Positions 1 through 19,432 of a stretch of 64,000 nucleotides of DNA are shown here, in pieces. The DNA comes from Deltaproteobacteria bacterium (GTDB lineage: Bacteria; UBA10199; SBBF01), in contig JACPFC010000026.1 of assembly GCA_016183175.1 (NCBI GenBank), forward strand, positions 41,907-105,906, written 5' to 3'. The translations under genes and the position numbers were made by a program. The stretch's first letter is position 1, and every line of letters starts with the position of its first letter. The notes beneath the pieces were generated by a model, which was not told the DNA's origin, ran no database searches, and worked only from the letters and a program-made list of their open reading frames with translations.

Positions 1-295
1 AGTCCATCAGCGCCGCGACTTCCGAGGCGTCAAAGGGGATATCCATCGTTGCCGCCTGGATCAGCCGCATGACCTCCAGCTTGTGGTCAAAGTAATAGTA
101 CTCGTCCAGCGGCGCCTCCCAATCATGACAGGGGGCTTTGCCCGAGCGTCTGATCAGGGTGTTGCGAAACGACTTCAAAAGCGGCAGGTAGGGGTTCTGC
201 GCAACGGTGACCTCCGGATGGACGCTTAAGATCATGTCCAGGAGGTTGGTCCCGCCGCGCGGGGTGCCGCTGATAATCAGGGGTCTTATTGGCAT
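1..295 (-). CDS. Sulfotransferase family protein, partial (C-terminus beyond window start)
   Basis: Minus-strand ORF starting at ATG 293-295 and running off the window. N-terminus MPIRPLIISGTPRGGTNLLDMIL carries the PAPS 5'-phosphosulfate-binding loop typical of sulfotransferases. Paralogous to the 13246..14445 gene. Confidence 0.6.
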   Translation of the reverse strand, partial: MPIRPLIISGTPRGGTNLLDMILSVHPEVTVAQNPYLPLLKSFRNTLIRRSGKAPCHDWEAPLDEYYYFDHKLEVMRLIQAATMDIPFDASEVAALMD

Positions 296-301
296 TGTGC
301 C

Positions 302-2212
302 CTACCTGACATCCCTCAAGTAGTCGCTGGCCCAATCCAGCATGCAGAGGGAAAAGAGGTCGTTTCGTTCCGATCCGGTTGCCTCTTTCCCGTCGAGATA
401 GTTCTTGGTCACGGTATTGATGTGGTTCATATCGAAGATCTCCGGGTCCAGCATCCGCTCGTAGAAACGACCGGCCAGTTGTTTCTTGTGATAGGAGGTA
501 AAGGAGGATCCGTACAGAATTTCGGCCGAATGGTTGAAGTTCGGGTCCACGTCATAGAGATAGGAATGGGGACCGACCTGGAGATGTAGAGGATAATCGA
601 TCTTGTTCTTGAGCATCCACTTCAGGGGGTATTTGGTCGGCCGGATGTCCAGGCCGCGGCCCCAATCTTCCGGCATCGCCGACAGAAAATCAATGAGGCG
701 GCTGTCCCGGAACGGTGTTTGGACATTGATCCCATACTTGTCTCCGGCAAGATCGATGCAGGCCACGGTGGATCCCTGCCAATGGAATGAATTGTACAGG
801 TGGAGGTACCAGGCATAGAGGGTTTCAGGGGTTGCCTCCCGGGAGGCCCTGGCCAGGTAAACCCCCATTGTTTCGTTGTGATGGTCCTGGCCTTTTTTGG
901 TGAGGAGTTTTACGTTCCGTCGGGAAAAGAGGGGGATTCGGCTGTTTCTCAAAAAGAAGCTTTCCAAAACCTGTCTCCGGATGGAGCCTCCACCCGCCGG
1001 TTCGTCGAATTCACAGCCTTTTGCGTTGGAGCGAATGAGGTTATAGATGGGGTCATTTTTAAAGGTTCCCTTTTCCAACAAACCGAGGAAGGTCGGTCCA
1101 TACAAATAGCTTGCCATTTTATCGGCATATTCACGAAATCCCAGATCGGGGTGAAAGACGGTGACGAATTGGCTGAACCCCAGATTGTGCGCCCCGTCGC
1201 TGATTTCACCGACAAACGCCGATTCGCCGCCGTCGGAGGTCTGGGCGATTTTTGCCGCCAGGCGCATGTGGTTCAAAGCGGTAATGCTTGAAATATGTTG
1301 CGATCGGAAGGCGCCGCGGCACTCCTCAAGGTATTCCGGCCCTTTTTTCCAATAGTCGAATTCCGCAATGTCCAGACGCACTCCAAAATAGTCCGCGACC
1401 TTTTTCGCGCGGTCCAGTTCGAACTGGTTGATGATGCCGCTCCGTTCGTTGTAGTTCATCCGTCCGATGACCGCGCGGACCTTCCGGGCGCCGAAAAGAT
1501 GAACGAGACAGGCGAGCAGAGAGGTCGAGTCCCATCCCGAGGAGAGATAAACGACGTTGCCGTAACGGGACCCCCGCTTTTCCACCGCATCGAGGAGCGT
1601 CTCCGAGTATTCCTCCAGTTCCCGATCGCCGTAAAGGCCGATGGGGGTCCCTTTGAATTCCGATTCCCCTATTTCAAGGGAGGTTCCCCGGAGGCGCGCG
1701 GTCTGTCCCACGCCGAGCCGGCTGATACCCGAGTAGAAGGTATGTTGCTTGGGGGGACGGTAGCCGTAGACGGTGAGAAAATGGGCGATCGCCTCCTGGT
1801 TGTATCGGCCGCACTTTCGAACCGGGAGAAGGTCAAGGTCGTTGGCCAGAAGAACCCCCTCCGGAGATTTCACGATGAAGAGATCCGACTGCGCAAACTG
1901 ATCGAGCGTTGTCTCACAGCCGCCCTCCCGGACGACGGCAAGGAGATAGCGTCCCTCGAAAACATTGCGGCACTCTTCCACGGAATGCGAAGAGATATAA
2001 TCCTGAAGAGAGCCCGGCGAGGCCCCCTCGAGGGCTCCGGAGGCGCTACGAATGCCGATAACCCGCCCCGCCAAAAAAGCGGATCGGCCGTCGGGGAAAT
2101 TCAGGCGGGTCACATCGGGATCGGCCTCAATGGTCAGATCGCCGGATTGGTATACTGCCGCAAGCGGGCTCTTCTCAAACCCCTTGCCTTTTCTGATTCT
2201 TAGTTTTTGCAT
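302..2212 (-). CDS. Asparagine synthetase-like amidotransferase (AsnB/WbpS/PseA-like), glycan-modifying
   Basis: 636-aa ORF with the SSGWDSTSL PP-loop (SGGxDS) motif of the asparagine synthase C-terminal domain. It sits in a nonulosonic-acid cluster. No Cys at position 2, so the class-II glutaminase nucleophile is apparently absent. Confidence 0.75.
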   Translation of the reverse strand: MQKLRIRKGKGFEKSPLAAVYQSGDLTIEADPDVTRLNFPDGRSAFLAGRVIGIRSASGALEGASPGSLQDYISSHSVEECRNVFEGRYLLAVVREGGCETTLDQFAQSDLFIVKSPEGVLLANDLDLLPVRKCGRYNQEAIAHFLTVYGYRPPKQHTFYSGISRLGVGQTARLRGTSLEIGESEFKGTPIGLYGDRELEEYSETLLDAVEKRGSRYGNVVYLSSGWDSTSLLACLVHLFGARKVRAVIGRMNYNERSGIINQFELDRAKKVADYFGVRLDIAEFDYWKKGPEYLEECRGAFRSQHISSITALNHMRLAAKIAQTSDGGESAFVGEISDGAHNLGFSQFVTVFHPDLGFREYADKMASYLYGPTFLGLLEKGTFKNDPIYNLIRSNAKGCEFDEPAGGGSIRRQVLESFFLRNSRIPLFSRRNVKLLTKKGQDHHNETMGVYLARASREATPETLYAWYLHLYNSFHWQGSTVACIDLAGDKYGINVQTPFRDSRLIDFLSAMPEDWGRGLDIRPTKYPLKWMLKNKIDYPLHLQVGPHSYLYDVDPNFNHSAEILYGSSFTSYHKKQLAGRFYERMLDPEIFDMNHINTVTKNYLDGKEATGSERNDLFSLCMLDWASDYLRDVR

Positions 2213-2829
2213 CGTGACTCCTTTTTTGTGTTGGTTTTTTCCCAGCGCATGGGCAAAACAGGGATATCGTTAATTTCCGCAAAGGGGGGAATCCACTCCT
2301 CTTTCAGGGCGCTGTAAATCACTTCATCCGCAAACCGGTTCTCGGCCGGAAGATACGCGTTCCCGCGCAGTTGGGCGTCTTTGCGCATCCGCAGTTTTTC
2401 CATGACGCGGATGGAGGCCCTGTTTTCGACAATCGCGCCGGCCTGAACCCGGTGGTACTCCCTTCTTTCAAAAAGATATCTCATGGCCGCCCCCACGGCC
2501 AAAGTGGCAATTCCCCTTCCCTGAACGTTTCTATCGCCGATGAGGTAAGAGATGTCAATCCACCTGTTCTCACGACTCCAGGCGGAGCAGGAGACATTGC
2601 CGATATGCCGCCCCTGATAATAAATCCCCCAGTGGTGGCGTTTTTTGGACTCGCAGTCCTCCAGAAACCGGATTACGTCCTCCTGCTTCAGCGGTTCGCG
2701 GCGATGACGGATCCCGAGATATCGGCGAATTTCAGGGTTGTTCAGCCAGGAGACATAATCCGGCGTCACCTCTTTATCCGTGAGAGGATTCAACCGGATT
2801 TCTTTTGCTATTGTTCCAGGCTGGTCCAT
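2200..2829 (-). CDS. GNAT family N-acetyltransferase (RimL-like; PseH-like candidate)
   Basis: ORF 2200..2991. The GNAT fold motifs (QGRGIAT...A) start after the internal Met at 2829 (MDQPGTIAKEI). The upstream extension overlaps the neighbouring neuB-like gene and is Arg/Pro-rich junk. Confidence 0.7.
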   Translation of the reverse strand: MDQPGTIAKEIRLNPLTDKEVTPDYVSWLNNPEIRRYLGIRHRREPLKQEDVIRFLEDCESKKRHHWGIYYQGRHIGNVSCSAWSRENRWIDISYLIGDRNVQGRGIATLAVGAAMRYLFERREYHRVQAGAIVENRASIRVMEKLRMRKDAQLRGNAYLPAENRFADEVIYSALKEEWIPPFAEINDIPVLPMRWEKTNTKKESRCKN

Positions 2830-3878
2830 CGGATCACGTCCCCCCCGACAATCCTGTGAATCGTTTTGCGGCCCACGACGGCGTCGAGAGACGGGGGCTT
2901 GATGCTTCCTTCCGGCGCCGGGCGGAGCACGTCGATATCTTTGCGTTGCAACAGATGACCTGCGGGCAGGTCGCATTTTGCCCGGAGACAACGCTGCTGG
3001 ACAACAAGACTCTCCCTCTCGTTTTCTTCAACCCGTTTCACCCCGTCTCCCAGCGAGACCTCCAGAAGCCTTGTCAGCTCCACCATTTCCCGCCACGTTG
3101 TGGGATTCATGGCGAATTTGTGGTCCGGCCCCTCGCGATTATTGTCATCCGTGAAATGTTTTTCCACGACCCTTGCTCCAAGGGCCACGGCTCCTAGGGT
3201 CGTAGCCGGGCCGAATGTATGGTCCGAGAGTCCAAGGACAAGATCGGGATAGAGAGATCGGTAGGTTTGGAGGACACGAAGATTCACGTATTTGTAGTTT
3301 TCCGGGCTTGCGGTGTAATTCGTGTTGCACTGCATGAGTACAAGATGGGGATTGATTTTAAGAATAGATTCGACAGCCAACCGGACATCATCGGGCGAAG
3401 CGGCCCCGGTGGCGAGGAGTACAGGTTTCCCTTTTCCCGCAATGTATTGGAGCATCTCAATCCAGGTAATGTCCCCCGAGCCTATCTTGTAGACATCGAC
3501 AAAGGGATCAAGATGGTCGACGCTCTCGAAGTCGTAAGGCGAGGAGAAATAATCGATCCCGACCCGGGCGCATTCTTCCTTTAAAACGGGGGTCCAGTCC
3601 CGTGAAATACTGTAGTCTTGGTAGGCCTCGAAGACCGATTTTTTCCAGCCGGACTGATGGGCCTGCCGCCGGCCAAGGTTCCTGAATCCGTAATCGCTCA
3701 CGATTTTGGGGGCCTGGAAATTCTGGAATTTGGCGGCATCGGCCTTCGCCTCTTTGGCCAGACCGATCAGTTTTTTTGCCCGATCCAGGTCTCCGTCATG
3801 ATTGGCGGCGATGTCCGCGACGAAGTAGGTCGGATGATCGGCGCCGATCTCCCGGCCGCTGATTTTGATGGTTCCCAT
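2808..3878 (-). CDS. N-acetylneuraminate synthase family protein (NeuB/PseI/LegI-type nonulosonic acid synthase)
   Basis: 356 aa. Has the IGxxHxxxxxxAxxLIxxAKxxGADAxKFQ N-terminus, a TIM-barrel region and a C-terminal SAF domain. Confidence 0.85.
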   Translation of the reverse strand: MGTIKISGREIGADHPTYFVADIAANHDGDLDRAKKLIGLAKEAKADAAKFQNFQAPKIVSDYGFRNLGRRQAHQSGWKKSVFEAYQDYSISRDWTPVLKEECARVGIDYFSSPYDFESVDHLDPFVDVYKIGSGDITWIEMLQYIAGKGKPVLLATGAASPDDVRLAVESILKINPHLVLMQCNTNYTASPENYKYVNLRVLQTYRSLYPDLVLGLSDHTFGPATTLGAVALGARVVEKHFTDDNNREGPDHKFAMNPTTWREMVELTRLLEVSLGDGVKRVEENERESLVVQQRCLRAKCDLPAGHLLQRKDIDVLRPAPEGSIKPPSLDAVVGRKTIHRIVGGDVIRWTSLEQ

Positions 3879-5644
3879 CAGATTTTCAAACTCGTATCCA
3901 GTTCGCTTCGGGACAACTTCGGCCGGATGTGCGCGTTCATCCTCGCCGTCTCCGGATGTTGATCCATATAATTCAGCGCCTCCCTCAAGTCCACCGGTTT
4001 CCCGGGCCGGTACAAGGCTTCGTGGAGCGCCTTGAAGAGGTTGAGATCCTCCTCGGTGTCGAGGGTCAGCCGGTAGTCCCGCCGATATTCGGACGGGGCC
4101 TCAAATTTATTCACGACAAAGGCGGTCTCATCATCCAGATACCAGGTGAGATATTCGGTGTTTTCGGGGTAGCCCGCCCTTTCAACGATGGTTTCCAGGG
4201 CCCGCAGGCTGATAATCTCCGTATCGCAACTGTAGGTAACCCCGGTCATCGCCGTGTAATCGGCGTGATTCTTCAGGTGGGATTCGATTGCCCGATCGAT
4301 CAGGGGAACGTCCCGCAAGAGGTCGTCTCCGGTGACGCGAACCACATGGTCGAGGCCGAATTTTTGTCCGGCGAGGAGCAACCGATGGGCTACATTTTCA
4401 TCCGGTCCCCGAAAAACCCGGATCCCCTCCCGGGCGGCAATTTCTGCAAGGATGTCGTCTTCCGGTTTTTCCGTGGTGCAGAGGATGACCTGGTCTGCCC
4501 GGGAACAGTGTTTCATCCTCTCGATCAAGAGGGCAATCGTTTCCCTCCCGCAGATCTTTTTCAAGGCCTTTTGGGGGAGCCGGGTGGATTGGGTCCTGCA
4601 GTTGATGAGAATCCCGACATTCTGCCGGATATCGAGACCGTTGATGAGGCTGTTTTTTCCTATTCGCCCGGCGGTCCGCCGCCGGGAGACAAAGTCCGAG
4701 GGGAGGGGATTGGAAAATTTCGTGGGGCGAACGAATTTCAGCTTTTCACACTCAAGGGGTGCGCCGGCCTCCAGCGCGCCGGCGGAAAAGTATGTCTTGG
4801 CCGCCTTTTCCCGATACCTCTGCCGCCCTTCCGTCCAGACGGGAAATTTACGGCTGACGGCCTCGAGCCCCCGGACGAGAGAGACGAGTCGGGCAAAATC
4901 CTCCGGTTCCACAGCCGACTCATAGTCCTCCCAGCGCCGGGAGCGGTCAAGGGTCAGATGTTTTTCGATGACGACCGCCCCGGCCCCGATGGCCGCCAAC
5001 GGAAAGGCAACGGCCAAAGGGTCTCCTCCGTCAATGTGATCGGCGCAACCGACGATCACGCCCATATCTTTATAGGTTTGGGAAAACCACCTGATCTCAT
5101 CCAGGCTGTGCTCCGAGGGAGGGGTCGGGAATAACTGGTGCCCCGGCAGGAAAACAACGGGGCTGTCGGGGGAAAATGAACGGATCCGTTTGACCGTTCG
5201 GTAGATTTCAACGCGTTTGTGGCCGCCAATGCCCAAAAGAACCGGCTTTCCCGACTTTGCAACCGCCTCCACGAGACAGGCGTTGTCCAGATCCGCCGCA
5301 TGCAGTTTGAAGGCATCGGTCCCGAGCGTTCGGGCCTCTTCAAAGGAATCGGGGCCGAAAATATCGGCAAAGATTGCTACTCCGGCCTCGCGCAATCTCG
5401 CGAAGATCTTCCTCCATGTGTCCATTCCGAATTCCAGTTTCTTGAAAAGGGCGTAATCGGCGTGGTCGGGGTTGCAAAGTTCGTCCGCCTTGTAGAACTG
5501 GAATTTGACGGCGTCCGCACGGCACCGGATGGCCGCGAGAACGAGCTCCAGACACTGATCCGGCGAACCCATGTGGCCCCCGGCAATCTCGGCGATCACC
5601 GTGTATTTCCCTCCCAAAAAAGATTTTTCAAGGGATTGGATCAT
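3878..5644 (-). CDS. Fusion protein: NeuB-like nonulosonic acid synthase (with SAF) plus C-terminal acylneuraminate cytidylyltransferase (SpsE/SpsF-like)
   Basis: ORF 3878..5893. The likely start is Met84 (MIQSLEKS, coordinate 5644), abutting the stop of the GT4 gene. The N-terminal half has VIAEIAGGHMGS...AVKFQ (NeuB). The C-terminal half has GILINCRTQSTRLPQKAL...VRVTGDDLLRD (CTP_transf_3 cytidylyltransferase). Confidence 0.75.
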   Translation of the reverse strand: MIQSLEKSFLGGKYTVIAEIAGGHMGSPDQCLELVLAAIRCRADAVKFQFYKADELCNPDHADYALFKKLEFGMDTWRKIFARLREAGVAIFADIFGPDSFEEARTLGTDAFKLHAADLDNACLVEAVAKSGKPVLLGIGGHKRVEIYRTVKRIRSFSPDSPVVFLPGHQLFPTPPSEHSLDEIRWFSQTYKDMGVIVGCADHIDGGDPLAVAFPLAAIGAGAVVIEKHLTLDRSRRWEDYESAVEPEDFARLVSLVRGLEAVSRKFPVWTEGRQRYREKAAKTYFSAGALEAGAPLECEKLKFVRPTKFSNPLPSDFVSRRRTAGRIGKNSLINGLDIRQNVGILINCRTQSTRLPQKALKKICGRETIALLIERMKHCSRADQVILCTTEKPEDDILAEIAAREGIRVFRGPDENVAHRLLLAGQKFGLDHVVRVTGDDLLRDVPLIDRAIESHLKNHADYTAMTGVTYSCDTEIISLRALETIVERAGYPENTEYLTWYLDDETAFVVNKFEAPSEYRRDYRLTLDTEEDLNLFKALHEALYRPGKPVDLREALNYMDQHPETARMNAHIRPKLSRSELDTSLKI

Positions 5645-6774
5645 TGCACCGCGGAATTTTTTTCCGGTCGCCGGCTTTTCCTGTTCTGATAATGCTCCCG
5701 GGCCATACGGTAGGCTCGCGGGATGTTTTGGGCATGGCGTTCCCAGTCCGCCTCTTTCATGATTTTTTTCCGATTTGCCGTTCCCATCTCTTCCCGCCGG
5801 GTTTTTCCGGAAACGGCGTTCAGGACGGCCGCGCAAATATCCTTCGCGCTGGCGCAATCGACCAGCCAGCCGTTTTCCCCATCCCTGACCCATTCAAGAT
5901 TGCCGTGTTCCCGGTGGACGATAACCGGCAGGCCGCAGGCCATCGCCTCAAGCAGGGAGACGGAACTCCCGTCCCGCAATGAAGAGCTGATGTAAAAATC
6001 GGAGGCGCCGTACCATACGGGAAGCTCCTCCTCGTCGATCCACCCGGGGGAGTGAATACTTCCGTCCAATTTCAACTGTTTGATCTGCTTACGGATCTCG
6101 TCCCGCAACGGGCCGTCTCCGGCCAGGATCAGCCTGACTTTCGGAAGTCGCTCCCGAAGAAGGGAAAAGGCTTCAACGAGAACCGGAATTCCATAATGGG
6201 GCAACCACGATCGCGTGGAAATCAACACCGTATTGTCGGTCCATCCCAGGCCTTGTCGAAGCGCGCGGGAACGGGTTCCGGGCAGATCCCGGAACCGATC
6301 CAGCTCCACTCCCCATGGGAACCGCATGGTCGGAATGCGGAGATCGGGCATCCATCCATCGAGTTTTTTCAGAACGGACCCGCAATCGACAATCAGTGCG
6401 TTCACCTCAAGAAGATTTCGGAGCAATTGTTCTCTTGAATCCGCCGTTTCCGAATCCATGGCCAGGATGTCGCTTCCCCATGACATTCCGACCAACGGCC
6501 GATCGATCTGTCCGACGATCCGGGGCAACACGCTGTTTAAAGGACCCGCGTGGACGACGTGGACATCGTGGCGCTCTGCGAGTTCCTGCCACAGGCTCAC
6601 CGGCTGACCGATTCCGGGCCAGAGAGCGACGGAAGGGGGAAGGGTCAGATTCTTCAGGACTTGAGAACCATTGACGGGGGCAAACCATGTCTTCCCGATC
6701 TGCCGGCCGATCGCCTTCAAAAACCGCCTGTCGTGCGGGGTATAGGATTCCGAAACGTAGAGAACGCTCCTCAC
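5641..6774 (-). CDS. Glycosyltransferase family 4 (GT-B)
   Basis: 377 aa, with the C-terminal GT4 signature ...SLLEAMACGLPVIV...GENGWLV. Confidence 0.8.
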   Translation of the reverse strand: MRSVLYVSESYTPHDRRFLKAIGRQIGKTWFAPVNGSQVLKNLTLPPSVALWPGIGQPVSLWQELAERHDVHVVHAGPLNSVLPRIVGQIDRPLVGMSWGSDILAMDSETADSREQLLRNLLEVNALIVDCGSVLKKLDGWMPDLRIPTMRFPWGVELDRFRDLPGTRSRALRQGLGWTDNTVLISTRSWLPHYGIPVLVEAFSLLRERLPKVRLILAGDGPLRDEIRKQIKQLKLDGSIHSPGWIDEEELPVWYGASDFYISSSLRDGSSVSLLEAMACGLPVIVHREHGNLEWVRDGENGWLVDCASAKDICAAVLNAVSGKTRREEMGTANRKKIMKEADWERHAQNIPRAYRMAREHYQNRKSRRPEKNSAVQ

Positions 6775-8174: not shown

Positions 8175-8178
8175 GAGA

Positions 8179-10037: not shown

Positions 10038-10793
10038 TTAATACCAGATCCTTCCCGCGCCCGAATCGATCCGGTTGTTGAGGGCGTTGATCTCCGGATG
10101 GGAGCGAAGATACGCGATAATCTTTTCTATGGAGACGGGCTTGTCGGGATTCAGCCGGAGATCTTCGTACACCCTGCGTAAAACGATCAGATCCTCGGGC
10201 CAGTCAACGGTCAGACGCACGTCCCCGCTTCGGACCTCCTCCGGGACACCCTGTTTTTTTATCTTGAACTGGTCGGGGTGTTCATGAATGTATGAAGTGC
10301 AAAACTCACTCCGGTGCCTCTTTTCCCCCAGCTCCCAGCTTTTCTTCAGGGCATCGTAACGGATAATTTCGTAGTAGGCCCCATCGGGGACTCCCAAAAT
10401 GACGGAATGGTCGAGGCCGTTGTCGCAATGATGCCGGTAGACCTCCTCAAGGTTATCGAGGTAGCAATACGGACTCTCCGTTGTCACACGGAACACCTGG
10501 TCGGCTTGCACCGATTCCGCGCCCCGTAACAGCCGGCCAAGGGCATCATGATCATCCCCGATGACAAAGGGAATCTCGTGGCGACGCGCGACTGTCCGAT
10601 AGACGGCATTTTCTTCCTTCTCGGAAATGGCCAGGACAATGCCTGAAAGGATGGGGATCTGCTTCAATTGACGGATCAGGAAATCGAGAATGGTCAGGCC
10701 CGTTTTGACATCCAGGGTTTGAAGCGGTTTCGCATACAGGCGAAGCGATTGATTGCGGCACGCCAGGACCGCCGCCATTTTTCCGGCTTTCAT
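10038..10793 (-). CDS. Acylneuraminate cytidylyltransferase family (CMP-nonulosonic acid synthetase, PseF/SpsF-like)
   Basis: 251 aa. N-terminal MAAVLACRNQSLRLYAKPL resembles the CTP_transf_3 P-loop-like segment. Confidence 0.65.
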   Translation of the reverse strand: MKAGKMAAVLACRNQSLRLYAKPLQTLDVKTGLTILDFLIRQLKQIPILSGIVLAISEKEENAVYRTVARRHEIPFVIGDDHDALGRLLRGAESVQADQVFRVTTESPYCYLDNLEEVYRHHCDNGLDHSVILGVPDGAYYEIIRYDALKKSWELGEKRHRSEFCTSYIHEHPDQFKIKKQGVPEEVRSGDVRLTVDWPEDLIVLRRVYEDLRLNPDKPVSIEKIIAYLRSHPEINALNNRIDSGAGRIWY

Positions 10794-11827
10794 GAAAATT
10801 CCTCCATGGCGGCCACTGCGCGGTCCGCCCCGGCGCCGTCCACAATCTCCCGGCCGCGTCGGGACATCGTTGTCCGCCGGGCGGGATCTTCCATCAAGCG
10901 GGAGACGGCCTCCGCGATTTGGGGGATGACGACCTCCTCATGCCGCCCCAGATGCAGGGCGCATCCCGAGGCGTGCAGGCTTGACGCAATAAACCTCTGG
11001 TTTGCCGCCGTGGAGATGAGAATGGCGGGCAGTCCCAAAAAACAGATCTCCCAACAGGTGCTCCCACCGGCGCTGACGGCCAGATCCGCCCATGTCATGA
11101 GCGTCGGCATATTACCGTTCGATCCGACCAATTCATTAGAACCGTTCAGGCCGGCGATCAGGCGCCGGAGAAGGCGTTCATTCGGATTCACATCACCCGC
11201 AACAATTTTCACGCGCCATCTTCCCTGATTCACGGTCGCTATCGCTTCGATGACCCTGGCGGCCTGGTTGTGACGATCTCCCGCACCCATCGTGATTAAA
11301 ATGTTCCGGTTTCGGGGCTTTGGGGGATGGACGGCGCGCCCCCGCCGGAGAAACTCTTCCCGCAACAACGCATAGCGACTGCCCAGGAGCAGAACGGCGC
11401 CCTGCTCCGTGTTGTACGTGAACAGGTTTTCGGCGTCATGGGTCTGATTCAGGACAATATCGGCCAATTGACGTCGGTCGGCCAGTTCATCGATGCAAAA
11501 GAGGAGCGAGCCGCCTTTCTTCAAAAGGCGTTGGTATTCGGTATCAAAAGAATAACCGTCCATCACGATCCACCGGCACGATTCCGCAACGGCCATCCGG
11601 CTTGTCGCCAAGGCATCCTCCCGTAGCGGCAGACCCGATTCAAGCCGCCTTACGGTCAATTTTTGCCGTTTGAGCCCGGCTACCAGACTGTCAGACAGGG
11701 CCTGTGACACAAAAAGGACATCATGGCCTTTCCTTCGTAGCGCCTGGGCGAGGGCCAGCGAGCGCATAAAATGACCGTAACCGGCAATCGGCCCGGCATC
11801 CACCCGCATGAGAACTTTAAACGACAT
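10790..11827 (-). CDS. pseG: UDP-2,4-diacetamido-2,4,6-trideoxy-beta-L-altropyranose hydrolase (PseG)
   Basis: 345 aa. N-terminus FKVLMRVDAGPIAGYGHFMRSLALAQAL matches the PseG (GT28-like nucleotidase) N-terminal signature. Confidence 0.8.
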   Translation of the reverse strand: MSFKVLMRVDAGPIAGYGHFMRSLALAQALRRKGHDVLFVSQALSDSLVAGLKRQKLTVRRLESGLPLREDALATSRMAVAESCRWIVMDGYSFDTEYQRLLKKGGSLLFCIDELADRRQLADIVLNQTHDAENLFTYNTEQGAVLLLGSRYALLREEFLRRGRAVHPPKPRNRNILITMGAGDRHNQAARVIEAIATVNQGRWRVKIVAGDVNPNERLLRRLIAGLNGSNELVGSNGNMPTLMTWADLAVSAGGSTCWEICFLGLPAILISTAANQRFIASSLHASGCALHLGRHEEVVIPQIAEAVSRLMEDPARRTTMSRRGREIVDGAGADRAVAAMEEFS

Positions 11828-11926
11828 TGTTCAGATGCTTACTTTGCAACTTCTTTGCGTTTTACAAAGAAGTCGGCGGACGGTTTGAAGTGCCATTCGG
11901 ATCATCTGGTTGGCGGCCCTGCCGCC

Positions 11927-13261
11927 TCAAGTCAATCGTTGGAAACCGGCCGCGGCCGGTGGACCCTTCAGGGACTCTTCAACCCGGTCGGATTGCAGGA
12001 GATCGGCCATTTCTTTAAAAACCTCATCGGCGGCCTTCAGGTATGAGGCGACCTGTTCCGCCTGGTGGGCATACATCGAGTAGAAGGCGGTGGAAGCAAG
12101 ATAACCTCTCTCCAGCATTCGCTGAACAAACAGGGCCTTGAGGGCAAGTTTCTTCGCATCCTGAAATTCAAGATGACCCATTGGCAGGATCCCTCCCACC
12201 TGGAGCGGCAACCGGCGCCTTTCGCCCAAAGTCCGCCAACCGGTTTGCACGGTTCCTCCGATCTCGGCCAAATGTTCCTGCACCCGGTAGCGGCGGTATT
12301 TTCGGATCATCGCTAGGGCCGCCGTGGGGCCGATCCGTTCGGTCCAGTAGGTGCTGCTGATGAAGGTATTCTGGGCCGCTTCCATGACTTCCGCCCGTCC
12401 AATGACCGCTCCGATCGGGTAGCCGTTCCCCAGGGCCTTGGAGAATACCGCCATGTCGGGGGTCACGCCCAGGACGAGGTGCGCCCCTCCGCACGCCAAC
12501 CGGAACCCGGATGAAATCTCGTCAAAGATGAGAACCGCCCCGACCTCGTCCGCTGTCGCCCGCACCTTCTCCAGAAAGCCGGGGAGGGGTTGGGTGTTGC
12601 GAATCGGCTCCATGACGATGGCGGCGATTTCCCGTTTATGTCGGGCCATGATCGTGTTTAATTCATCGGGACAATTATAGCGGAAGGGGAGGGCCGTCCC
12701 CTTCAAACCTTGCGGAACCCCCGCAGGTTTGAGGCCCGATAGAAGATGCTCCCCAAGGGCGTTTTCGGTCCCCAGGTTTGCCGCCAGATACCAATCGTGC
12801 CAACCATGATAACCGCAAAAGGCGATCTTGTCGCGGCCGGTATGGCATCGCGCAATGCGGACGGCGATCGCCATCGATTCTCCTCCGGTGCGCGCGAACC
12901 GCGCCATCTCCGCCCAGGGATGAAGTTCGCACAACAGTTCGGCCAACTCGACCTCTTCCGGGCCGTTGAGCGTGCAACTCGTTCCGGCCTCAAGGGTCTC
13001 TTTGACGGCGGCGTCGACATCCGGGTCGGCGTATCCGAGGACATTGGCGCCGATTCCGCCCAGACTCATGTCGATATAACGATTACCGTCCAGATCCCAG
13101 ACCTCGGCGCCCTTTGCGCGACTGAAGTACCCCGGCCACACTCCCGGCGCAAACTGATCGGGTCTCTTGGAGAGGAGCTGTGTCATGCCCGGAATTCTCC
13201 TCCGGGCCCGCTCCTGCATCCGGAGTCCTGCCGTAATCTTGCTTTTCAAGTCCGATGACAT
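11927..13261 (-). CDS. Class-III aminotransferase (glutamate-1-semialdehyde aminomutase-like)
   Basis: 444 aa with class-III PLP aminotransferase architecture (…FDEISSGFR…, HemL-like). Confidence 0.75.
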   Translation of the reverse strand: MSSDLKSKITAGLRMQERARRRIPGMTQLLSKRPDQFAPGVWPGYFSRAKGAEVWDLDGNRYIDMSLGGIGANVLGYADPDVDAAVKETLEAGTSCTLNGPEEVELAELLCELHPWAEMARFARTGGESMAIAVRIARCHTGRDKIAFCGYHGWHDWYLAANLGTENALGEHLLSGLKPAGVPQGLKGTALPFRYNCPDELNTIMARHKREIAAIVMEPIRNTQPLPGFLEKVRATADEVGAVLIFDEISSGFRLACGGAHLVLGVTPDMAVFSKALGNGYPIGAVIGRAEVMEAAQNTFISSTYWTERIGPTAALAMIRKYRRYRVQEHLAEIGGTVQTGWRTLGERRRLPLQVGGILPMGHLEFQDAKKLALKALFVQRMLERGYLASTAFYSMYAHQAEQVASYLKAADEVFKEMADLLQSDRVEESLKGPPAAAGFQRLT

Positions 13262-14445: not shown

Positions 14446-14450
14446 GGATT

Positions 14451-15170
14451 CTAGGTTTTCAGGTCCTCCGGCGTGTCAATTTCCCTCCATCCGCCGGAAA
14501 TCGGCACGGCCTTCACAGGCACGGAAAGATGGATGAGGTGCTGAATAAATGTCGTCATGTACATCTGATCGAATCGGGCGCCGTCATAGAGGCGATCACG
14601 GTCCATCCGGCGGTAAAGCGCGCGAATCCTATTCGTGATCGAGCGTCGGATTTTAAGAAGTCCTATATATTGCCCCTGGATTTCCTGATATGTCGCCGGC
14701 TTCTTCCCGATCTCCAAAATATACCCCTGTCGATTGAGCTTAAGCGTCTCGGCATCCTTGAGGGGGTCGAGCCCTCTTCTTGACCAGAGGGTTTTCCATT
14801 CCTTGTCGACAACAACGGCAAAGTCGGAAGGCTCGTCGATCAGCGTTTGAAGAATAGCAGGCTCGTAAACGATATCTGCATAAGAAATAATGACGTCATC
14901 ATCCATTTCCTGTTCCGCGCAGAATAACGTGGCGACCATGTTTGTTGCGGCATACCGCTCATTGAGGATGCTTTTTGCGCCGTCCGTTTTCAAGGCCTCC
15001 GCCTTATATCCCTTGACAACCGTAATATCGTCGATCCGGCAGTGTCGCAGGGTCTCCAAAATGCGGGTAATCATCGGCTTGCCGTTGTAGGCGACCATCG
15101 CCTTGGGGCGATCATCGGTCAGGGGACCGAGTCGCGACCCCCGACCCGCGGCAAGGATGATGGCCTTCAT
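14451..15170 (-). CDS. Sugar-phosphate nucleotidyltransferase (NTP_transferase; LicC/PtmE-like)
   Basis: 239 aa. N-terminal MKAIILAAGRGSRLGPLT is the nucleotidyltransferase G-rich loop. Confidence 0.75.
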   Translation of the reverse strand: MKAIILAAGRGSRLGPLTDDRPKAMVAYNGKPMITRILETLRHCRIDDITVVKGYKAEALKTDGAKSILNERYAATNMVATLFCAEQEMDDDVIISYADIVYEPAILQTLIDEPSDFAVVVDKEWKTLWSRRGLDPLKDAETLKLNRQGYILEIGKKPATYQEIQGQYIGLLKIRRSITNRIRALYRRMDRDRLYDGARFDQMYMTTFIQHLIHLSVPVKAVPISGGWREIDTPEDLKT

Positions 15171-15181
15171 CGATCAGGATT

Positions 15182-15778
15182 TCACCGGGTGTAAAATTCT
15201 CTCACGAACTCGATGTCCGGGGGCGCGAACGGGTGGATCCTTTCCGGGTGCCACATGAGTCCTTGAATGGGTCTCGTTTTATGCCGAACCGCCTTGACGA
15301 CTCCGTCAGGGGCCGCCGCCCATACATCCAAAACATCGGTTGTTTCAGTCGTCCCCATCCTGTGGTAGCTGGGAACTTCCCGCTCGGTTCCGTTCACGGT
15401 GATCTTGAGTGTTGGTGTTATGTGGCCCTCAACCTGGGTCAACCGGATTCCAAAGAAATGCTGGATCAGTTGCATTCCTCTGCAAATGCCGAGAAGCGGC
15501 AGATTCCTGTCCAACGCATGCTTGAGGAGAAACAGCTCGGTTTCGTCGCGCTCCGGGGCATCCCCCCCATAGTCAAGAAGGTTATTTCCACCCGTCAACA
15601 GGATTCCATGACAGGCGATCGATCGTACGAGCGACTCGGCCGATCTCACATGATTGGGAATGGGATAAGGAGTGAATCCGCATTGTAAAAGGAAGGCGAT
15701 CCATCGCTGATCCAGTTGATCGCGACGCTCCCTGTTCTCCGAGGTTCCCACGCGCTGGGTGACGCCGATGAACCTCAT
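15182..15778 (-). CDS. Class I glutamine amidotransferase (peptidase C26 / gamma-glutamyl hydrolase family)
   Basis: 198 aa with the GICRGMQL nucleophile elbow and a downstream WHPE histidine motif. Confidence 0.75.
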   Translation of the reverse strand: MRFIGVTQRVGTSENRERRDQLDQRWIAFLLQCGFTPYPIPNHVRSAESLVRSIACHGILLTGGNNLLDYGGDAPERDETELFLLKHALDRNLPLLGICRGMQLIQHFFGIRLTQVEGHITPTLKITVNGTEREVPSYHRMGTTETTDVLDVWAAAPDGVVKAVRHKTRPIQGLMWHPERIHPFAPPDIEFVREFYTR

Positions 15779-18132
15779 CGGATGACGGATACCCTCTTGT
15801 CGGAACAGTCGATATCAAGCATCTCGGCCTTTGCCCATCTTGAATAGAAAATTTCCCCGGCGCCGATCACCGCCGGAACGCCAAGTTCACCCGCCCGGAC
15901 AGCCATGTGGGAGTTGGCCCCGCCGTACATCGTAATCAACGCGGCGATGCGACGGGAGAAAACCCAGTCATAGCCCGGGTCCGCGCTCGGTATCATGAGA
16001 ATACTGCCGACGAGTTTTTGGCGGTTCTCATGGTGGACGTGGGCCACCGGGCCTCTGGCCTTTTGGAGGGTGATAAAATTCGGCGCGCTCTCGGGCAGGT
16101 GGAAATGCCATACATCCTCCGGTTTCGTAATCAGGGGGGGCAGGGACAGGCTTCTTGTGAGCGAATAATTTTCCTGTCCCGAGGCGATGCTTTTCTTCAA
16201 AACCGACGCGGCATCCGCGCTCGACGAATAAAGCTCCTTGATGCAGTTGATATCCGCGTAGGAGCATTGTTCAGGGCTGAATCCGTTTTCATTCCCCAGT
16301 TCCCTGAATAATTTGAGGATCTCGCTGACGTTGACGGTAAAGATAAATTTGGCATATTCCCTTGCCGCGACGGCCTTGCCGATGAAATCATAAAGCTCAT
16401 GGGCATCCAGTTGCAACGGGTGATGTTTCAGAAGTTTGCCGGTTTGCCGCAGTTGATCCGGAGACGGAATAAATCGGCGATTTTCCCGGCGGTTCTTTTT
16501 TGGGGAGGGGGCCCATGTGAAGTACTGATCGGGTTCCTCGTCGTACCGGGGGGACAGAATGTCGTAGGTCCCGGGCCTCAAGTGGCCGTATTTTTTTAAA
16601 AAGGTCTTGCGGCTTAAATATTGAAAGTCCTGATTCATCTGTGAGCCGATCGTATTCAAACTTCTTGTAAAGAGGTCATATTCGGACCGGTTAAGGATGC
16701 CGACACGCTGTAACGATTGAAGAAGTTGCACGGCAATGAATCCGGTGCGCGCCAAACCGGCGAAGGGAAGGGTTCCGTACCGCTTGCAATCTTCCAGGAG
16801 CCAGTAGATTTTCGAGACATTGTTCTGCGGGCTTTGCATGATGACGGAATGGCGCTTTTGAAGATCATTTATCTTCTCCAGGTCCTCATGCCATAGCCCG
16901 TCTTCGCCGTGAATAATTCTGTTGGTGAGCGCGCCAAGACTTTTTTCCAAACGGGCGCAATCCGGTTTGCTGAAGCCGTTTTTCCGGAGCTCTTCGGAAC
17001 GGGCGGTGAAATCAAAGGTGTAGCACGTATAAAGAATTTCAAATTCGACCTTGTCATGGTCGGTCGGAGACTCCAGAAGAGACTTGAGGTAGTAATTCAC
17101 CAAACGCTCCGAGAGCTCGGCGTCAATATCCGCGGGAACGAATGAGTTGAAGTCAACGCGGACGTCGATGTAAGGGAATCCGTGAAAACTGATCAATAAA
17201 GGGAAGCTTCGGAGGCTTTTATAGCCGTAGTTATCCCTCTGGTAGGCCCAAATGCTGTCCGTGATCAGTTCTTTATAGAGGGACAGGGTCAGGGGACGAG
17301 GCCGAACGCCGATCATCTCGGCCGGATTCCAGTCGGGCATGACGCCATAAATGGTTTTTGAGCCGTGGAGGTATGGGTGCGGTTGCATGGATTCTTTTAT
17401 CTTGCGGTAAATCATCCCCAGGGCCTTTTCGTGCCTTTCCGTCGAGATGTCGGGTTTGGGAACACCCACGAGAGGACGGGCCTGCAGGAGATAGAGATGA
17501 CCTTCGGCGCCGACGGCAAATTCGATATCAAGAGAATCCGTTTCCAGGAGAGATTCCAGCTCCCAAACCAGTTTGACGATCCTGCCCCATTGAGGAGAAG
17601 GCGCTTTTCTGTGCTTGTAACAGTAAAACATCTTCAGGTTGTTTGATCCGCCTGAAGTGACCGTGGATGTCCCCCGGCCGGCATCATCGTAATTAACGAC
17701 GATGTAGGGTCCGCCGGTATTCGGATCCCTGCTGAAGGCCACTCCGCTTAAGGCGACATCCTGCAACATCGGTTGAAGGAACACCTGGTCCCCGTCGTTC
17801 CCGATGCCGTAAGATTGAATGACCTTTGAGATTGCCTTGCGGACCGCCCTCTCTCCGCTCACATCCTTTACAGAAAGATGGCGGCCGGCCATGGATTCCT
17901 TGAAAGAATCCTCAACATACGCACTGCTTCGCACAATCAATGGAATCTCATCCAGCCACCCGGCCTCCCGAATCCGGTGGATCATTCGGGATGGCGATTC
18001 CTCCCATTCTTTCACCGTCATCCGGATTTGAGGGAGAACCCTTGCCGACTTTAGGACCGCCTCGAGGCGTTCCAGCGTTTCCGCCTTGGTTCCAAAGCGA
18101 ACCGTCATTGAAGTTTTTTTTGGACAGTCCAC
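15775..18132 (-). CDS. PEP-utilizing enzyme (pyruvate,water dikinase-like): N-terminal ATP/PEP-binding domain plus phosphohistidine mobile domain, no TIM-barrel
   Basis: 785 aa. The C-terminus YGGANSHMAVRAGELGVPAVIGAG is the PEP-utilizing phosphohistidine motif. The N-terminal ~350 aa resemble the PPDK_N nucleotide-binding domain. Confidence 0.7.
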   Translation of the reverse strand: MDCPKKTSMTVRFGTKAETLERLEAVLKSARVLPQIRMTVKEWEESPSRMIHRIREAGWLDEIPLIVRSSAYVEDSFKESMAGRHLSVKDVSGERAVRKAISKVIQSYGIGNDGDQVFLQPMLQDVALSGVAFSRDPNTGGPYIVVNYDDAGRGTSTVTSGGSNNLKMFYCYKHRKAPSPQWGRIVKLVWELESLLETDSLDIEFAVGAEGHLYLLQARPLVGVPKPDISTERHEKALGMIYRKIKESMQPHPYLHGSKTIYGVMPDWNPAEMIGVRPRPLTLSLYKELITDSIWAYQRDNYGYKSLRSFPLLISFHGFPYIDVRVDFNSFVPADIDAELSERLVNYYLKSLLESPTDHDKVEFEILYTCYTFDFTARSEELRKNGFSKPDCARLEKSLGALTNRIIHGEDGLWHEDLEKINDLQKRHSVIMQSPQNNVSKIYWLLEDCKRYGTLPFAGLARTGFIAVQLLQSLQRVGILNRSEYDLFTRSLNTIGSQMNQDFQYLSRKTFLKKYGHLRPGTYDILSPRYDEEPDQYFTWAPSPKKNRRENRRFIPSPDQLRQTGKLLKHHPLQLDAHELYDFIGKAVAAREYAKFIFTVNVSEILKLFRELGNENGFSPEQCSYADINCIKELYSSSADAASVLKKSIASGQENYSLTRSLSLPPLITKPEDVWHFHLPESAPNFITLQKARGPVAHVHHENRQKLVGSILMIPSADPGYDWVFSRRIAALITMYGGANSHMAVRAGELGVPAVIGAGEIFYSRWAKAEMLDIDCSDKRVSVIR

Positions 18133-18875
18133 GCGCGAGTCTTGTACGGCACAACAATGCGATCGAGGCCCGAAATTTCACTTTCAATCCGGTCGAGTAT
18201 TTCCTGAAATTTGAGTTCGCCGGCCTGCGCCTGCAGGTCATTCACCGACCTCCAAACGCCGAGGTATCTTTGCCGATCCATCGTTTCTTCGTGCGGGGCC
18301 TCCATAAAGATTGGATGATGAAAGTGGCCGGTGCCGATGAGCGTTTGTTCGAGGCCCCGGGTGTATTTTTCCGCACCGGAAGAAACCCTCTTCAAACCGG
18401 GCGCCATCGCACAGACAATTTCCTCGATCCGCTTCTGCAAGGGGCTTTTTTCCAGGTCACGCGGATTCCATAAGGCGCTAAAAAACCCTCCCGGTCTTAA
18501 AATGCGGTGAAACTCGGCGAGTGCGGCGATGGAATTCGTCCAGTGAAAAGACGAGGCCATCAAAATCCAGTCGACCGAGGCATCGGACAACCCCGTTTCC
18601 TCGGCGGTTCCTTTTGACCATTTGACCCGGGAGCGATCCCTGCAAAGACGCAACCCTTCTTCCCGCATCGCCTCATTGGGCTCGATGGCATAGCCGGAAA
18701 GACCAAGATCCATGAGGATCCCGGTCAACTTGCCGGTTCCCGCCCCGATATCGGCGACGAGGAACCCGTCACGGGCGGCGTCCATGTAAAGGGCAAGGGC
18801 CTTCAGGACCTGTTTGGAATAGCCGGGTCTGTGGAAATAGTGTTTGGCGAGTTCCGTATAATCACCCGGTTTCAT
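18105..18875 (-). CDS. Class I SAM-dependent methyltransferase
   Basis: 256 aa with the SAM-binding motif I VADIGAGTGKLT. Confidence 0.8.
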   Translation of the reverse strand: MKPGDYTELAKHYFHRPGYSKQVLKALALYMDAARDGFLVADIGAGTGKLTGILMDLGLSGYAIEPNEAMREEGLRLCRDRSRVKWSKGTAEETGLSDASVDWILMASSFHWTNSIAALAEFHRILRPGGFFSALWNPRDLEKSPLQKRIEEIVCAMAPGLKRVSSGAEKYTRGLEQTLIGTGHFHHPIFMEAPHEETMDRQRYLGVWRSVNDLQAQAGELKFQEILDRIESEISGLDRIVVPYKTRAWTVQKKLQ

Positions 18876-19432
18876 AATCGCCCGTCCTCAAAGGCCGAAA
18901 AAAGGAACCGCGCCAGGGAAGCGGGCGTTTGCGTCCCGTCGTTGTCGATGATGGCGTCGGGATTTTTTGGTTCTTCCGCCGGCAGGTCGATGCCCATCAC
19001 ATTTCTTATTTTTCCCCGCAAGGCCCTGCTGTAGAGCTTTTTTGCGTCTCTCTTGATGAGGACTTTCATGGGGGCCCGGACAAAGATTTCCCTGTAATTC
19101 CTGATATGGGCCCTGTTCCACGCATGCAATGCCCGAAACAGGGAAATGGTCGCGCAAACCACGTGAATTCCCTGATCCGAAAGGACCTTGCAGAGGCGCG
19201 CGTTTCTTGCCGCTATTTTTCTGCGGTGCGCGAGCGAATGGTCGAGAGGACTGTCGAAGACCCTCCGAAGGACATCGCCATCCAGGAAAACGGCATTTTG
19301 TCTGTTTTTCTTCAGGCGCCGGTAAAACAATTTTCCGATGGTCGTCTTGCCGGCCCCCGCCAAACCGGTGAACCAGAAAACGGTTCCATGTCGGCCGTTG
19401 ATTCGGGCCTCCTGTTTTAATGGGGAGGCCAT
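18872..19432 (-). CDS. cysC: Adenylyl-sulfate kinase (APS kinase)
   Basis: 186 aa. The Walker A segment VFWFTGLAGAGKTTIGK is diagnostic of APS kinase. Confidence 0.85.
   Translation of the reverse strand: MASPLKQEARINGRHGTVFWFTGLAGAGKTTIGKLFYRRLKKNRQNAVFLDGDVLRRVFDSPLDHSLAHRRKIAARNARLCKVLSDQGIHVVCATISLFRALHAWNRAHIRNYREIFVRAPMKVLIKRDAKKLYSRALRGKIRNVMGIDLPAEEPKNPDAIIDNDGTQTPASLARFLFSAFEDGRL

Follow-up and report, generated by a model that had tools for sequence, protein, structure and literature searches.

The window analysed here is a 64,000-nucleotide stretch, taken at its full length, of contig JACPFC010000026.1 (positions 41,907 to 105,906 of the forward strand; assembly GCA_016183175.1) from a Deltaproteobacteria bacterium. 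It carries a string of genes for the synthesis of pseudaminic acid (Pse), among which lie an APS-kinase-fold gene, two sulfotransferase-fold genes (proteins 1 and 2), and a set of genes that resemble the O-methyl phosphoramidate (MeOPN) pathway of Campylobacter jejuni. Open reading frames (ORFs) were assigned by Pfam and NCBIfam scans of the window proteins (Table 1). All genes of the string are on the minus strand, from 24024 down to 1 (~24 kb), mostly overlapping or spaced by a few bp, and with no gap larger than 99 bp, so the arrangement fits one operon. A preliminary description of this DNA had read the kinase as a CysC-type adenosine-5'-phosphosulfate (APS) kinase that makes 3'-phosphoadenosine-5'-phosphosulfate (PAPS) for two paralogous sulfotransferases, and had suggested a sulfated derivative of Pse or legionaminic acid (Leg), or a sulfated glycan, as the outcome. 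The three genes are where it placed them and have the Pfam matches expected of them, and their interleaving with Pse genes in an apparent single operon is borne out by equivalog-level PseB, PseC, PseG, and PseI. However, the methyltransferase gene at 18105-18875 and three further genes (14451-18132) had been overlooked. These lie between the kinase and the sulfotransferase-fold gene and change the meaning of the kinase.

The kinase is the first of five translationally coupled genes, which follow in the order kinase, methyltransferase, glutamine kinase, Peptidase_C26 (C26) amidase, and cytidylyltransferase. This block most likely matches the C. jejuni Cj1415-Cj1418 pathway with its methyltransferase, with 3'-phospho-CDP-amidate as the predicted product. 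Cj1415-Cj1418 make CDP-phosphoramidate 3'-phosphate, the likely donor, from glutamine, ATP, and CTP (PMC11800397). The glutamine kinase was assigned by family score (PRK05849, 939.7 bits against a cut-off of 501) and by the names of its homologs; proteins 53-59% identical to it carry the JGI name 'glutamine kinase', and fusions of such proteins to an APS_kinase domain exist. The C26 gene has NF045546 (gamma-glutamyl-CDP-amidate hydrolase) as its top NCBIfam match; the score of 108.7 bits does not reach the equivalog cut-off (250) but is far above that of the runner-up (45 bits). Its synteny is kept in every module that we examined, and we propose that it encodes a Cj1417-type gamma-glutamyl-CDP-amidate hydrolase. 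The NTP_transf_3 gene matches at the domain level and hits no specific NCBIfam model, but it directly follows the C26 gene in all glutamine-kinase modules; a role as Cj1416-type CTP:phosphoglutamine cytidylyltransferase is proposed. Homologs of the methyltransferase (37-55% identity) lie between kinase and glutamine kinase in modules of Nitrospina, Clostridium, Daviesbacteria, Elusimicrobiota, and Azospirillum, and a homolog adjoins the kinase on the plasmid of Deltaproteobacteria bacterium Smac51. The window enzyme would O-methylate the phosphoramidate, a role like that of Cj1419/Cj1420.

Table 1. Genes of the Pse-type operon in the order of transcription, with the match that supports each assignment
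Feature	Coordinates	Strand	Match
MarR-like regulator	23503-24024	-	Pfam/NCBIfam scan
PseB	22458-23498	-	TIGR03589 equivalog 500.1 bits, cut-off 407.75
RmlD-like::PseC fusion	20312-22525	-	TIGR03588 PseC equivalog 495.4 bits, cut-off 423.5
Aldo-keto reductase	19417-20346	-	Aldo_ket_red 110 bits
APS-kinase-fold kinase, 186 aa; proposed cytidine diphosphoramidate 3'-kinase	18872-19432	-	Pfam APS_kinase 115.9 bits
Class I S-adenosylmethionine (SAM) methyltransferase; proposed phosphoramidate O-methyltransferase	18105-18875	-	Methyltransf_11 57.8 bits
Putative L-glutamine kinase (Cj1418-type; PPDK_N + swivelling PEP-utilizers domain)	15775-18132	-	PRK05849 939.7 bits
Peptidase_C26 / class I glutamine amidotransferase-like protein; proposed gamma-glutamyl-CDP-amidate hydrolase	15182-15778	-	Peptidase_C26 84.4 bits
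NTP_transf_3 nucleotidyltransferase; proposed CTP:phosphoglutamine cytidylyltransferase	14451-15170	-	NTP_transf_3 72.4 bits
Sulfotransferase-fold protein 1 (TPST-like), 399 aa	13246-14445	-	Sulfotransfer_3 66.4 bits, Sulfotransfer_1 55.2 bits
Class III aminotransferase	11927-13261	-	Pfam/NCBIfam scan
PseG	10790-11827	-	TIGR03590 equivalog 219.3 bits, cut-off 153.55
CMP-transferase-like	10038-10793	-	Pfam/NCBIfam scan
N-formyltransferase	9249-10034	-	Pfam/NCBIfam scan
PseI	8179-9252	-	TIGR03586 equivalog 484.9 bits, cut-off 340.25
DUF4910/DUF2172 M28-like protein with winged helix	6771-8174	-	DUF4910 296 bits
GT4	5641-6774	-	Pfam/NCBIfam scan
NeuB::CTP_transf_3 cytidylyltransferase fusion	3878-5893	-	Pfam/NCBIfam scan
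NeuB paralog	2808-3878	-	Pfam/NCBIfam scan
GNAT	2200-2991	-	Pfam/NCBIfam scan
PP-loop Asn-synthase-like protein, 636 aa	302-2212	-	Asn_synthase 26.4 bits; SSGWDS motif
Sulfotransferase-fold protein 2, N-terminal 98 codons (407 aa in full)	1-295	-	Sulfotransfer_3 26.8 bits

The kinase itself was compared with kinase domains drawn from loci of known context. Its best NCBIfam match is PRK05541 (184.8 bits), and its apsK score of 126.3 bits falls under the 138.7 cut-off. In a neighbour-joining tree, it groups with the kinase of L011 (a Dehalococcoidia locus). Six kinase domains that form fusions with glutamine kinase (47-52% identity) belong to the same group, as do the kinases of the other glutamine-kinase-context loci except for the divergent fused kinase of L047, whereas kinases adjacent to an ATP sulfurylase form separate clades and are 30-37% identical to the window kinase. 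The margin of the PRK05541 score over the apsK score is +58.5 bits for the window kinase and +52 to +78 bits for six kinases from glutamine-kinase contexts, as opposed to +22, +26, and -62 bits for three from sulfurylase contexts. PRK05541 is not diagnostic by itself, because two sulfurylase-linked kinases (L005 and L060) also score above its cut-off, a point against our assignment; we rejected it as a marker of the Cj1415 type, and the margin alone discriminates.

The surroundings of the kinase were then searched for sulfate activation. A tblastn search with a Sat-type query found no sat-type ATP sulfurylase in the window, and no CysD/CysN-type gene was found among the Pfam-scanned ORFs, that is, the cluster genes and ten large ORFs from the rest of the window, the latter having housekeeping Pfam matches or none. 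Nine related loci, unlike the window, have an ATP sulfurylase, and the window is also without the pyruvate kinase, CysQ, or sulfate transporter of true sulfation relatives. The gene thus far read as CysC opens a glutamine-kinase block and clusters with glutamine-kinase-linked kinases, and the claim that it makes PAPS does not hold up for this window. We propose that it encodes a Cj1415-type cytidine diphosphoramidate 3'-kinase, giving 3'-phospho-CDP-amidate, and we regard its membership of the phosphoramidate-donor pathway as highly probable.

Protein 1 begins 5 bp after the cytidylyltransferase gene. An AlphaFold2 model from a 50-sequence alignment was of high confidence (predicted local distance difference test score [pLDDT] 94.3, predicted template-modelling score 0.93). 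Its Foldseek matches in the PDB at E <= 0.001 are almost all PAPS-dependent sulfotransferases, with TPST1/2 at the top (E ~3e-9) and with the sulfotransferase domains of CurM and an olefin synthase (OLS), cytosolic SULTs, and mycobacterial Stf among the others. A profile search matches TPST at E 1.6e-21. The 5'-phosphosulfate-binding-like (5'-PSB-like; P-loop-like) motif GTARGGT and the 3'-phosphate-binding (3'-PB) motif RDPRAVIAS are conserved across the family. We think it rather likely that protein 1 is a phosphoramidyl transferase that uses 3'-phospho-CDP-amidate to decorate a Pse-type glycan. The closest homologs of known context, P0004 (54% identity) and P0006 (51%), are both in glutamine-kinase contexts.

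To define neighbourhood contexts across the family, marker searches were run on ~60 loci sampled through the 161 detectable homologs of protein 1; 53 of these loci came from a family-alignment scan of genome and metagenome contigs and more were added by exact-protein look-ups. First, eight loci from seven lineages, the window and the P0006 contig (no DNA) included, carry the glutamine-kinase set, and none of them has an ATP sulfurylase. They include L004, the closest homolog with usable context (54% identity), as well as L007 (Planctomycetaceae), L015 (Methylomirabilales), and L047, in which the glutamine kinase is fused to the kinase. L011 and L012 (Dehalococcoidia) have the order sulfotransferase, glutamine kinase, C26, nucleotidyltransferase, methyltransferase, kinase, and PP-loop protein. 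The kinase type of this set also occurs in L027 and L056, which are probable members. Second, ten loci (nine distinct, since L002 repeats L001) carry an ATP sulfurylase and/or a pyruvate kinase. In L001/L002, L003, L005, L006, L009, L023, L059, and L060, an APS kinase occurs together with an ATP sulfurylase and a pyruvate kinase, and these are often joined by an anion transporter and a CysQ-like phosphatase; L008, with a pyruvate kinase and a kinase but no detectable sulfurylase, is placed here provisionally. Third, the two contexts are mutually exclusive: no locus among the ~60 has both sets. For about 25 homologs at greater distance (29-35% identity), neither donor module lies within 10 kb. 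Finally, the contexts fall into pure clades on the family tree, three for the glutamine kinase and about four for the sulfurylase.

Two features recur within this sample. In both context types, most related loci have a DUF4910 gene that adjoins the sulfotransferase homolog, and this constant adjacency of DUF4910 and Pse genes suggests a nonulosonic acid, or its N-acyl substituent, as the target. Genes for CysQ-like 3'-phosphatases neighbour the sulfotransferase in L056 and on the P0006 contig, and one lies inside an Elusimicrobiota module described below; these fit a role in clearing a 3',5'-bisphosphate by-product.

Some relatives hold a complete, dedicated sulfation set next to the same sulfotransferase family. 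In L005:6199-12006, L060:10001-16500, L001:7950-11821, and L003:4049-8854, Pse/DUF4910 clusters include an ATP sulfurylase, APS kinase, pyruvate kinase, CysQ-like Inositol_P phosphatase, and a TauE or Na/H-exchanger transporter. In L001 and L003 the ATP sulfurylase carries a fused pyruvate kinase domain, and there are also a kinase::sulfotransferase fusion in L001 and a sulfotransferase::methyltransferase fusion in L003. As a source of sulfated nonulosonic-acid glycans, these four loci are more promising than the window, and they may make such glycans. The sulfated glycan of the preliminary description is therefore a reasonable idea for those relatives, given that the family has genuine PAPS-linked members. 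For the window, what stands is that sulfotransferase-fold enzymes and an APS-kinase fold sit within a Pse operon, where they probably decorate the glycan by way of a 3'-phosphonucleotide donor; the group transferred is likely (O-methyl) phosphoramidate and not sulfate.

Because the loci above had been chosen through the sulfotransferase, an independent sample was drawn through the glutamine kinase, from close homologs 50-57% identical to that of the window. All five loci, from five phyla, have a kinase, a methyltransferase, and a sulfotransferase-fold gene, and no ATP sulfurylase. Nitrospina has the order kinase, methyltransferase, glutamine kinase, C26, nucleotidyltransferase, and a sulfotransferase-fold gene (347 aa) that keeps RDPRD...S. 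The Clostridium homopropionicum DSM 5847 locus, with flagellin genes adjacent, runs sulfotransferase-fold gene, radical SAM gene, kinase, methyltransferase, glutamine kinase, C26, and nucleotidyltransferase. Ca. Daviesbacteria has sulfotransferase, kinase, methyltransferase, glutamine kinase, and a C26::nucleotidyltransferase fusion; Elusimicrobiota has the same first four genes, then C26, a CysQ-like phosphatase, and nucleotidyltransferase. On a plasmid of Azospirillum lipoferum 4B, a kinase fusion protein is followed by methyltransferase, glutamine kinase, C26, nucleotidyltransferase, and two genes labelled 'sulfotransferase domain-containing'. The sulfotransferase-fold proteins of the five loci belong to at least three subfamilies that are barely alignable with the proteins of the window, and so the association is with the fold and not with one lineage.

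By contrast, three plasmid-borne modules whose glutamine kinases are less similar (33-37% identity), those of Vibrio alfacsensis (pYa108; L074), Pseudohalocynthiibacter (L076), and Agrobacterium vitis (L075), have no kinase, no methyltransferase, and no sulfotransferase. There, glutamine kinase, C26, and cytidylyltransferase are accompanied instead by a TagF-like protein (Glyphos_transf) or a CDP-alcohol phosphatidyltransferase. Such phosphotransferases can use a CDP-linked donor directly, and these modules suggest a second route that uses CDP-amidate in this way. Since kinase-less modules are without the sulfotransferase and kinase-bearing modules, apart from one on the Smac51 plasmid, have it, the 3'-kinase and the sulfotransferase fold come and go together. 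This joint gain and loss is expected if the purpose of the 3'-phosphate is to match the 3'-phosphate-binding motif of the fold.

Further observations were made on these modules. Divergently next to the Vibrio alfacsensis pYa108 module lie cysD-cysN and an SLC13 permease. The Azospirillum fusion protein (L073:4668-7208, plasmid AZO_p6) is an 846-aa 'adenylyl-sulfate kinase' with a C-terminal APS_kinase domain; its N-terminus has no Pfam match but, by eye, has sulfotransferase-family-2-like motifs (FIHFDLPRAAGDSL ... FVRNPFDWYISSYYW), and it may be a sulfotransferase-kinase fusion within a glutamine-kinase module. In Ca. Daviesbacteria (L071:7350-19798; GCA_964526115.1), the whole module is present twice in tandem with sulfotransferase copies that are 100% identical, either through recent duplication or as an assembly artefact. 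A scan of viral contigs for glutamine-kinase loci returned only three. On an IMG/VR giant-virus MAG contig (GVMAG-M-3300009496-9; L061:8684-12166), one 1160-aa ORF combines C26 amidase, nucleotidyltransferase, and glutamine kinase; its neighbours are a large protein with multiple glycosyltransferase domains and nucleotide-sugar transporters, and no kinase was observed. A search with the Clostridium sulfotransferase-like protein found four homologs, one from Sulfurimonas and none from Campylobacter. A hidden Markov model of this Clostridium/Sulfurimonas subfamily, run against 1.84 billion representatives, matched the C-terminal part of several 590-690-aa proteins, none of them named as Campylobacter. 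An AlphaFold2 model of the subfamily had low confidence (pLDDT 65.5) and was not used.

Taken together, donor pathway genes occur in Desulfobacterota-like metagenome-assembled genomes (MAGs), Nitrospinota, Firmicutes, Elusimicrobiota, Patescibacteria, Alphaproteobacteria plasmids, Dehalococcoidia, Planctomycetota, and Methylomirabilota. The model of the preliminary description was weighed as a rival. In it, the APS kinase makes PAPS from APS supplied by a sulfurylase encoded elsewhere, and both sulfotransferases sulfate the Pse-type sugar or glycan; the glutamine-kinase genes would then serve an unrelated decoration by way of some other transferase. The Pfam APS_kinase and sulfotransferase matches on which it builds are real, the nearest solved structures are APS kinases and PAPS sulfotransferases, and relatives at 40-47% identity do lie in complete sulfation modules. 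Yet the kinase gene is joined to the Cj1415-1418-like block by translational coupling, its phylogeny places it with glutamine-kinase-linked kinases, and no ATP sulfurylase, CysQ, or sulfate transporter was found in the window, which thereby differs from every true sulfation relative. The model would also leave a compact operon of the Nitrospina type with a phosphoramidate donor that has no transferase and a sulfotransferase that has no PAPS source, and it sits poorly with the joint gain and loss of kinase and sulfotransferase fold across glutamine-kinase modules. We judge it improbable.

Several points nonetheless weigh against phosphoramidyl transfer by protein 1. Donor specificity, that is, cytosine versus adenine and phosphoramidate versus sulfate, is not readable from sequence; the relatives at 40-47% identity are clearly tied to real PAPS modules, so that PAPS use is what one would expect of this family by default. 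If the bacterium is a sulfate reducer, APS would be plentiful in it, and an APS kinase on its own could then supply PAPS with no sulfurylase in the cluster. The core alignment column at Ser276 of the window protein is Ser in 8/8 enzymes from glutamine-kinase contexts and Asn or His in 9/9 from sulfurylase contexts, but homologs that lack a nearby donor module often have Ser as well, and phmmer and profile alignments disagree on whether Ser276 corresponds to the catalytic Ser of TPST. For these two reasons we rejected Ser276 as proof of donor specificity; the split could be phylogenetic noise and is treated as a lead only. The module on the Smac51 plasmid, a more distant homolog, has a kinase and a methyltransferase but no recognisable sulfotransferase. 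It is flanked by two paralogous 413-aa proteins (L077:6583-7824 and 11779-13020; 28% identical to each other) that have no Pfam match and no similarity to any sulfotransferase profile. They were dropped as sulfotransferase candidates and stand as an unexplained exception, being either a true exception to the rule or another transferase class, possibly Cj1421/22-like. Lastly, the known MeOPN transferases Cj1421 and Cj1422 were first annotated as glycosyltransferases (PMC9561416).

Protein 2 runs off the window at base 1; contigs of the same organism (L064 and L065) show a complete 407-aa gene, the last of the operon, followed by a convergent metallophosphoesterase gene. Proteins 1 and 2 share 37% identity over their full length (E 8e-91) and are thus true paralogs, as had been proposed. 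The nearest relatives of protein 2 are L034 (57%) and L030 (51%), both on short contigs, followed by enzymes from sulfurylase contexts (41-42%), and at two context-discriminating columns it has Thr and Asn, as those enzymes do. In view of this sulfurylase-context residue at the Ser276 column and of its phylogenetic closeness to sulfurylase-context enzymes, protein 2 could either decorate another site with phosphoramidate or be a true sulfotransferase that depends on PAPS. In the latter case the module would be mixed, with protein 1 transferring phosphoramidate and protein 2 drawing on PAPS whose synthesis is encoded elsewhere in the genome, and the glycan would bear both MeOPN and sulfate. For many members of the family no donor module lies within 10 kb, and these presumably depend on housekeeping PAPS, which agrees with such an arrangement, as do the relatives and residues of protein 2. 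The discriminating columns may merely mirror phylogeny, however, the searches of the window described above found no sulfate-activation gene, and C. jejuni itself has two paralogous, genetically defined MeOPN transferases, Cj1421 and Cj1422, for two sites (PMC3907429). We consider a mixed module unlikely.

We also considered whether the sulfotransferase-fold proteins might not be glycan transferases at all. They might activate a hydroxyl for elimination, as CurM and OLS do, or act on a lipid or protein acceptor, while the PP-loop protein or GT4 transfers the phosphoramidate. CurM and olefin-synthase sulfotransferase domains are indeed among the top structure and sequence matches, and the PP-loop protein is confined to glutamine-kinase contexts, with homologs (44-51% identity) in L004, L011, and L047 only; in L004, as in the window, its gene immediately adjoins one of the sulfotransferase family. 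Nitrospina, Elusimicrobiota, Daviesbacteria, L007, and L015, on the other hand, have the sulfotransferase fold and no PP-loop protein, and the family is found consistently within Pse/DUF4910 glycan clusters. This explanation appears very improbable. The PP-loop protein, in which no glutamine-amidotransferase domain was detectable, was rejected as the transferase, because most modules lack it and because it is not related to the canonical AsnB encoded alongside the Clostridium module.

Returning to protein 1 as the phosphoramidyl transferase, we propose the following mechanism. The glutamine kinase would phosphorylate L-glutamine on its amide nitrogen, the cytidylyltransferase would form CDP-L-glutamine, and the C26 amidase would liberate cytidine diphosphoramidate. 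Phosphorylation of the 3'-OH by the APS-kinase-fold enzyme would then yield 3'-phospho-cytidine-5'-diphosphoramidate, which is isosteric with PAPS. Protein 1 would hold this nucleotide with its 5'-PSB loop and R...S 3'-phosphate motif, as a sulfotransferase holds PAPS, and the terminal phosphorus would come under attack from an acceptor hydroxyl of the Pse-type sugar or glycan, with cytidine 3',5'-bisphosphate as the leaving group. The SAM methyltransferase would O-methylate the phosphoramidate, after or before transfer, to give MeOPN. The donor-making steps through 3'-phosphorylation are put forward on homology and on the published biochemistry of C. jejuni; we infer the use of a cytidine donor by protein 1 from gene context, and which acceptor is used and when methylation takes place are likewise inferences. 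Just past base 1 of the window, on the opposite strand, lies the gene convergent with the operon end (L065:3660-5072), which encodes a 470-aa purple-acid-phosphatase-like metallophosphoesterase; it is conceivable that this enzyme hydrolyses the by-product nucleotide.

The proposed system can be set beside those already known. With the C. jejuni MeOPN pathway it shares the same five enzyme types in one contiguous block, the same predicted product, and two paralogous candidate transferases, and the donor module is, by homology and gene order, a further instance of that pathway outside Campylobacter. It differs in its host, an environmental deltaproteobacterial MAG, and in lying within a Pse operon instead of a Kps-type capsule locus, so that the acceptor would be a nonulosonic-acid glycan. 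Its candidate transferases have a sulfotransferase fold, whereas Cj1421/22 were first annotated as glycosyltransferases (PMC9561416); as far as we have checked, the transferase class is undescribed, though it may have a hidden relationship to Cj1421/22. In PAPS modules (Sat or CysDN with CysC, a sulfotransferase, and CysQ, as in L005, L060, and C. jejuni HS:19 cluster VI; PMC8743553), an APS-kinase fold likewise adds a 3'-phosphate handle to a nucleoside 5'-diphospho-type donor that a sulfotransferase fold then uses, and in L005 and L060 the sulfotransferase family (40-47% identity) and the DUF4910/Pse context are also the same. In the window, however, a glutamine kinase, an amidase, and a cytidylyltransferase replace the sulfurylase, and the kinase falls in the glutamine-kinase-linked clade. 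TPST1/2 and the CurM/OLS domains share the fold and the 5'-PSB and 3'-PB motifs with protein 1, but they are only 15-20% identical to it, protein 1 is ~100 residues longer, and the acceptor differs, as probably does the donor.

The remaining genes of the operon surround this module with a Pse pathway. As in the PseB/C/H/G/I/F pathway, equivalogs of PseB, PseC, PseG, and PseI are present, whereas PseF and PseH have domain-level matches only (CTP_transf_3, 29.5 bits, and GNAT Acetyltransf_3, 78 bits) and pass no equivalog score. Beyond that pathway, the window adds two NeuB paralogs, an N-formyltransferase, a class III aminotransferase, an aldo-keto reductase, DUF4910, and the phosphoramidate module, which implies a heavily modified derivative. 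Of the three NeuB-family synthase genes, only the one at 8179-9252 passes the PseI equivalog cut-off; the other two, one of them fused to CTP_transf_3, suggest a second ulosonic acid or a pathway branch. The RmlD-like::PseC ORF has a TTG start and a 68-nt overlap with PseB, and its true start is uncertain. A protein identical to the glutamine kinase is recorded as 'MAG: Deltaproteobacteria bacterium', and the best explanation of bases 1-24024 is one operon for a Pse-type surface glycan in an uncultured Deltaproteobacteria bacterium. Outside the operon, 26600-29281 encodes an 893-aa protein with six MopE-type putative metal-binding repeats and FG-GAP repeats, 48107-52657 is a 1516-aa ORF with a weak acyltransferase match alone, and the remainder of 35-64 kb holds housekeeping genes (SHMT, ribD, ribBA, and YceD).

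To our knowledge, MeOPN, a rare P-N modification, is so far known only from Campylobacter capsules. In these capsules it has a bearing on resistance to serum, recognition by phages, and the design of vaccines. As late as 2022, a review described the glutamine kinase as 'C. jejuni-specific' (PMC9561416), and in 2025 the Raushel group wrote that the decoration steps were yet to be elucidated, transfer not having been reconstituted (PMC12409886). A preprint on Borgs reports homologs of Cj1416-1418 in archaeal elements and does not name a transferase. Among the papers available to us, none links a glutamine kinase to a sulfotransferase.

The gene neighbourhoods described here indicate that the MeOPN-type donor pathway is widespread across phyla and would not be limited to Campylobacter. 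Where 'adenylyl-sulfate kinase' or 'sulfotransferase' labels stand beside PEP-utilising, C26, and nucleotidyltransferase genes, they are probably misassigned. More broadly, we suggest, tentatively and as a possibility that falls somewhat short of probable, that sulfotransferase-fold enzymes are general phosphoramidyl transferases of a widespread glutamine-kinase pathway, recruited repeatedly from PAPS-dependent ancestors, with donor switching within a single family (40-47% identity) and with a MeOPN-Pse glycan as the outcome here. A sulfotransferase-fold protein is a concrete and testable candidate for the missing MeOPN transferase, and such a transferase would explain the PAPS-like 3'-phosphate of the donor; the module is carried by the cultured organisms Azospirillum lipoferum 4B and Clostridium homopropionicum. 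If our reading is true, the bacterium of the window would make a pseudaminic-acid glycan decorated with O-methyl phosphoramidate, a structure that has never been described.

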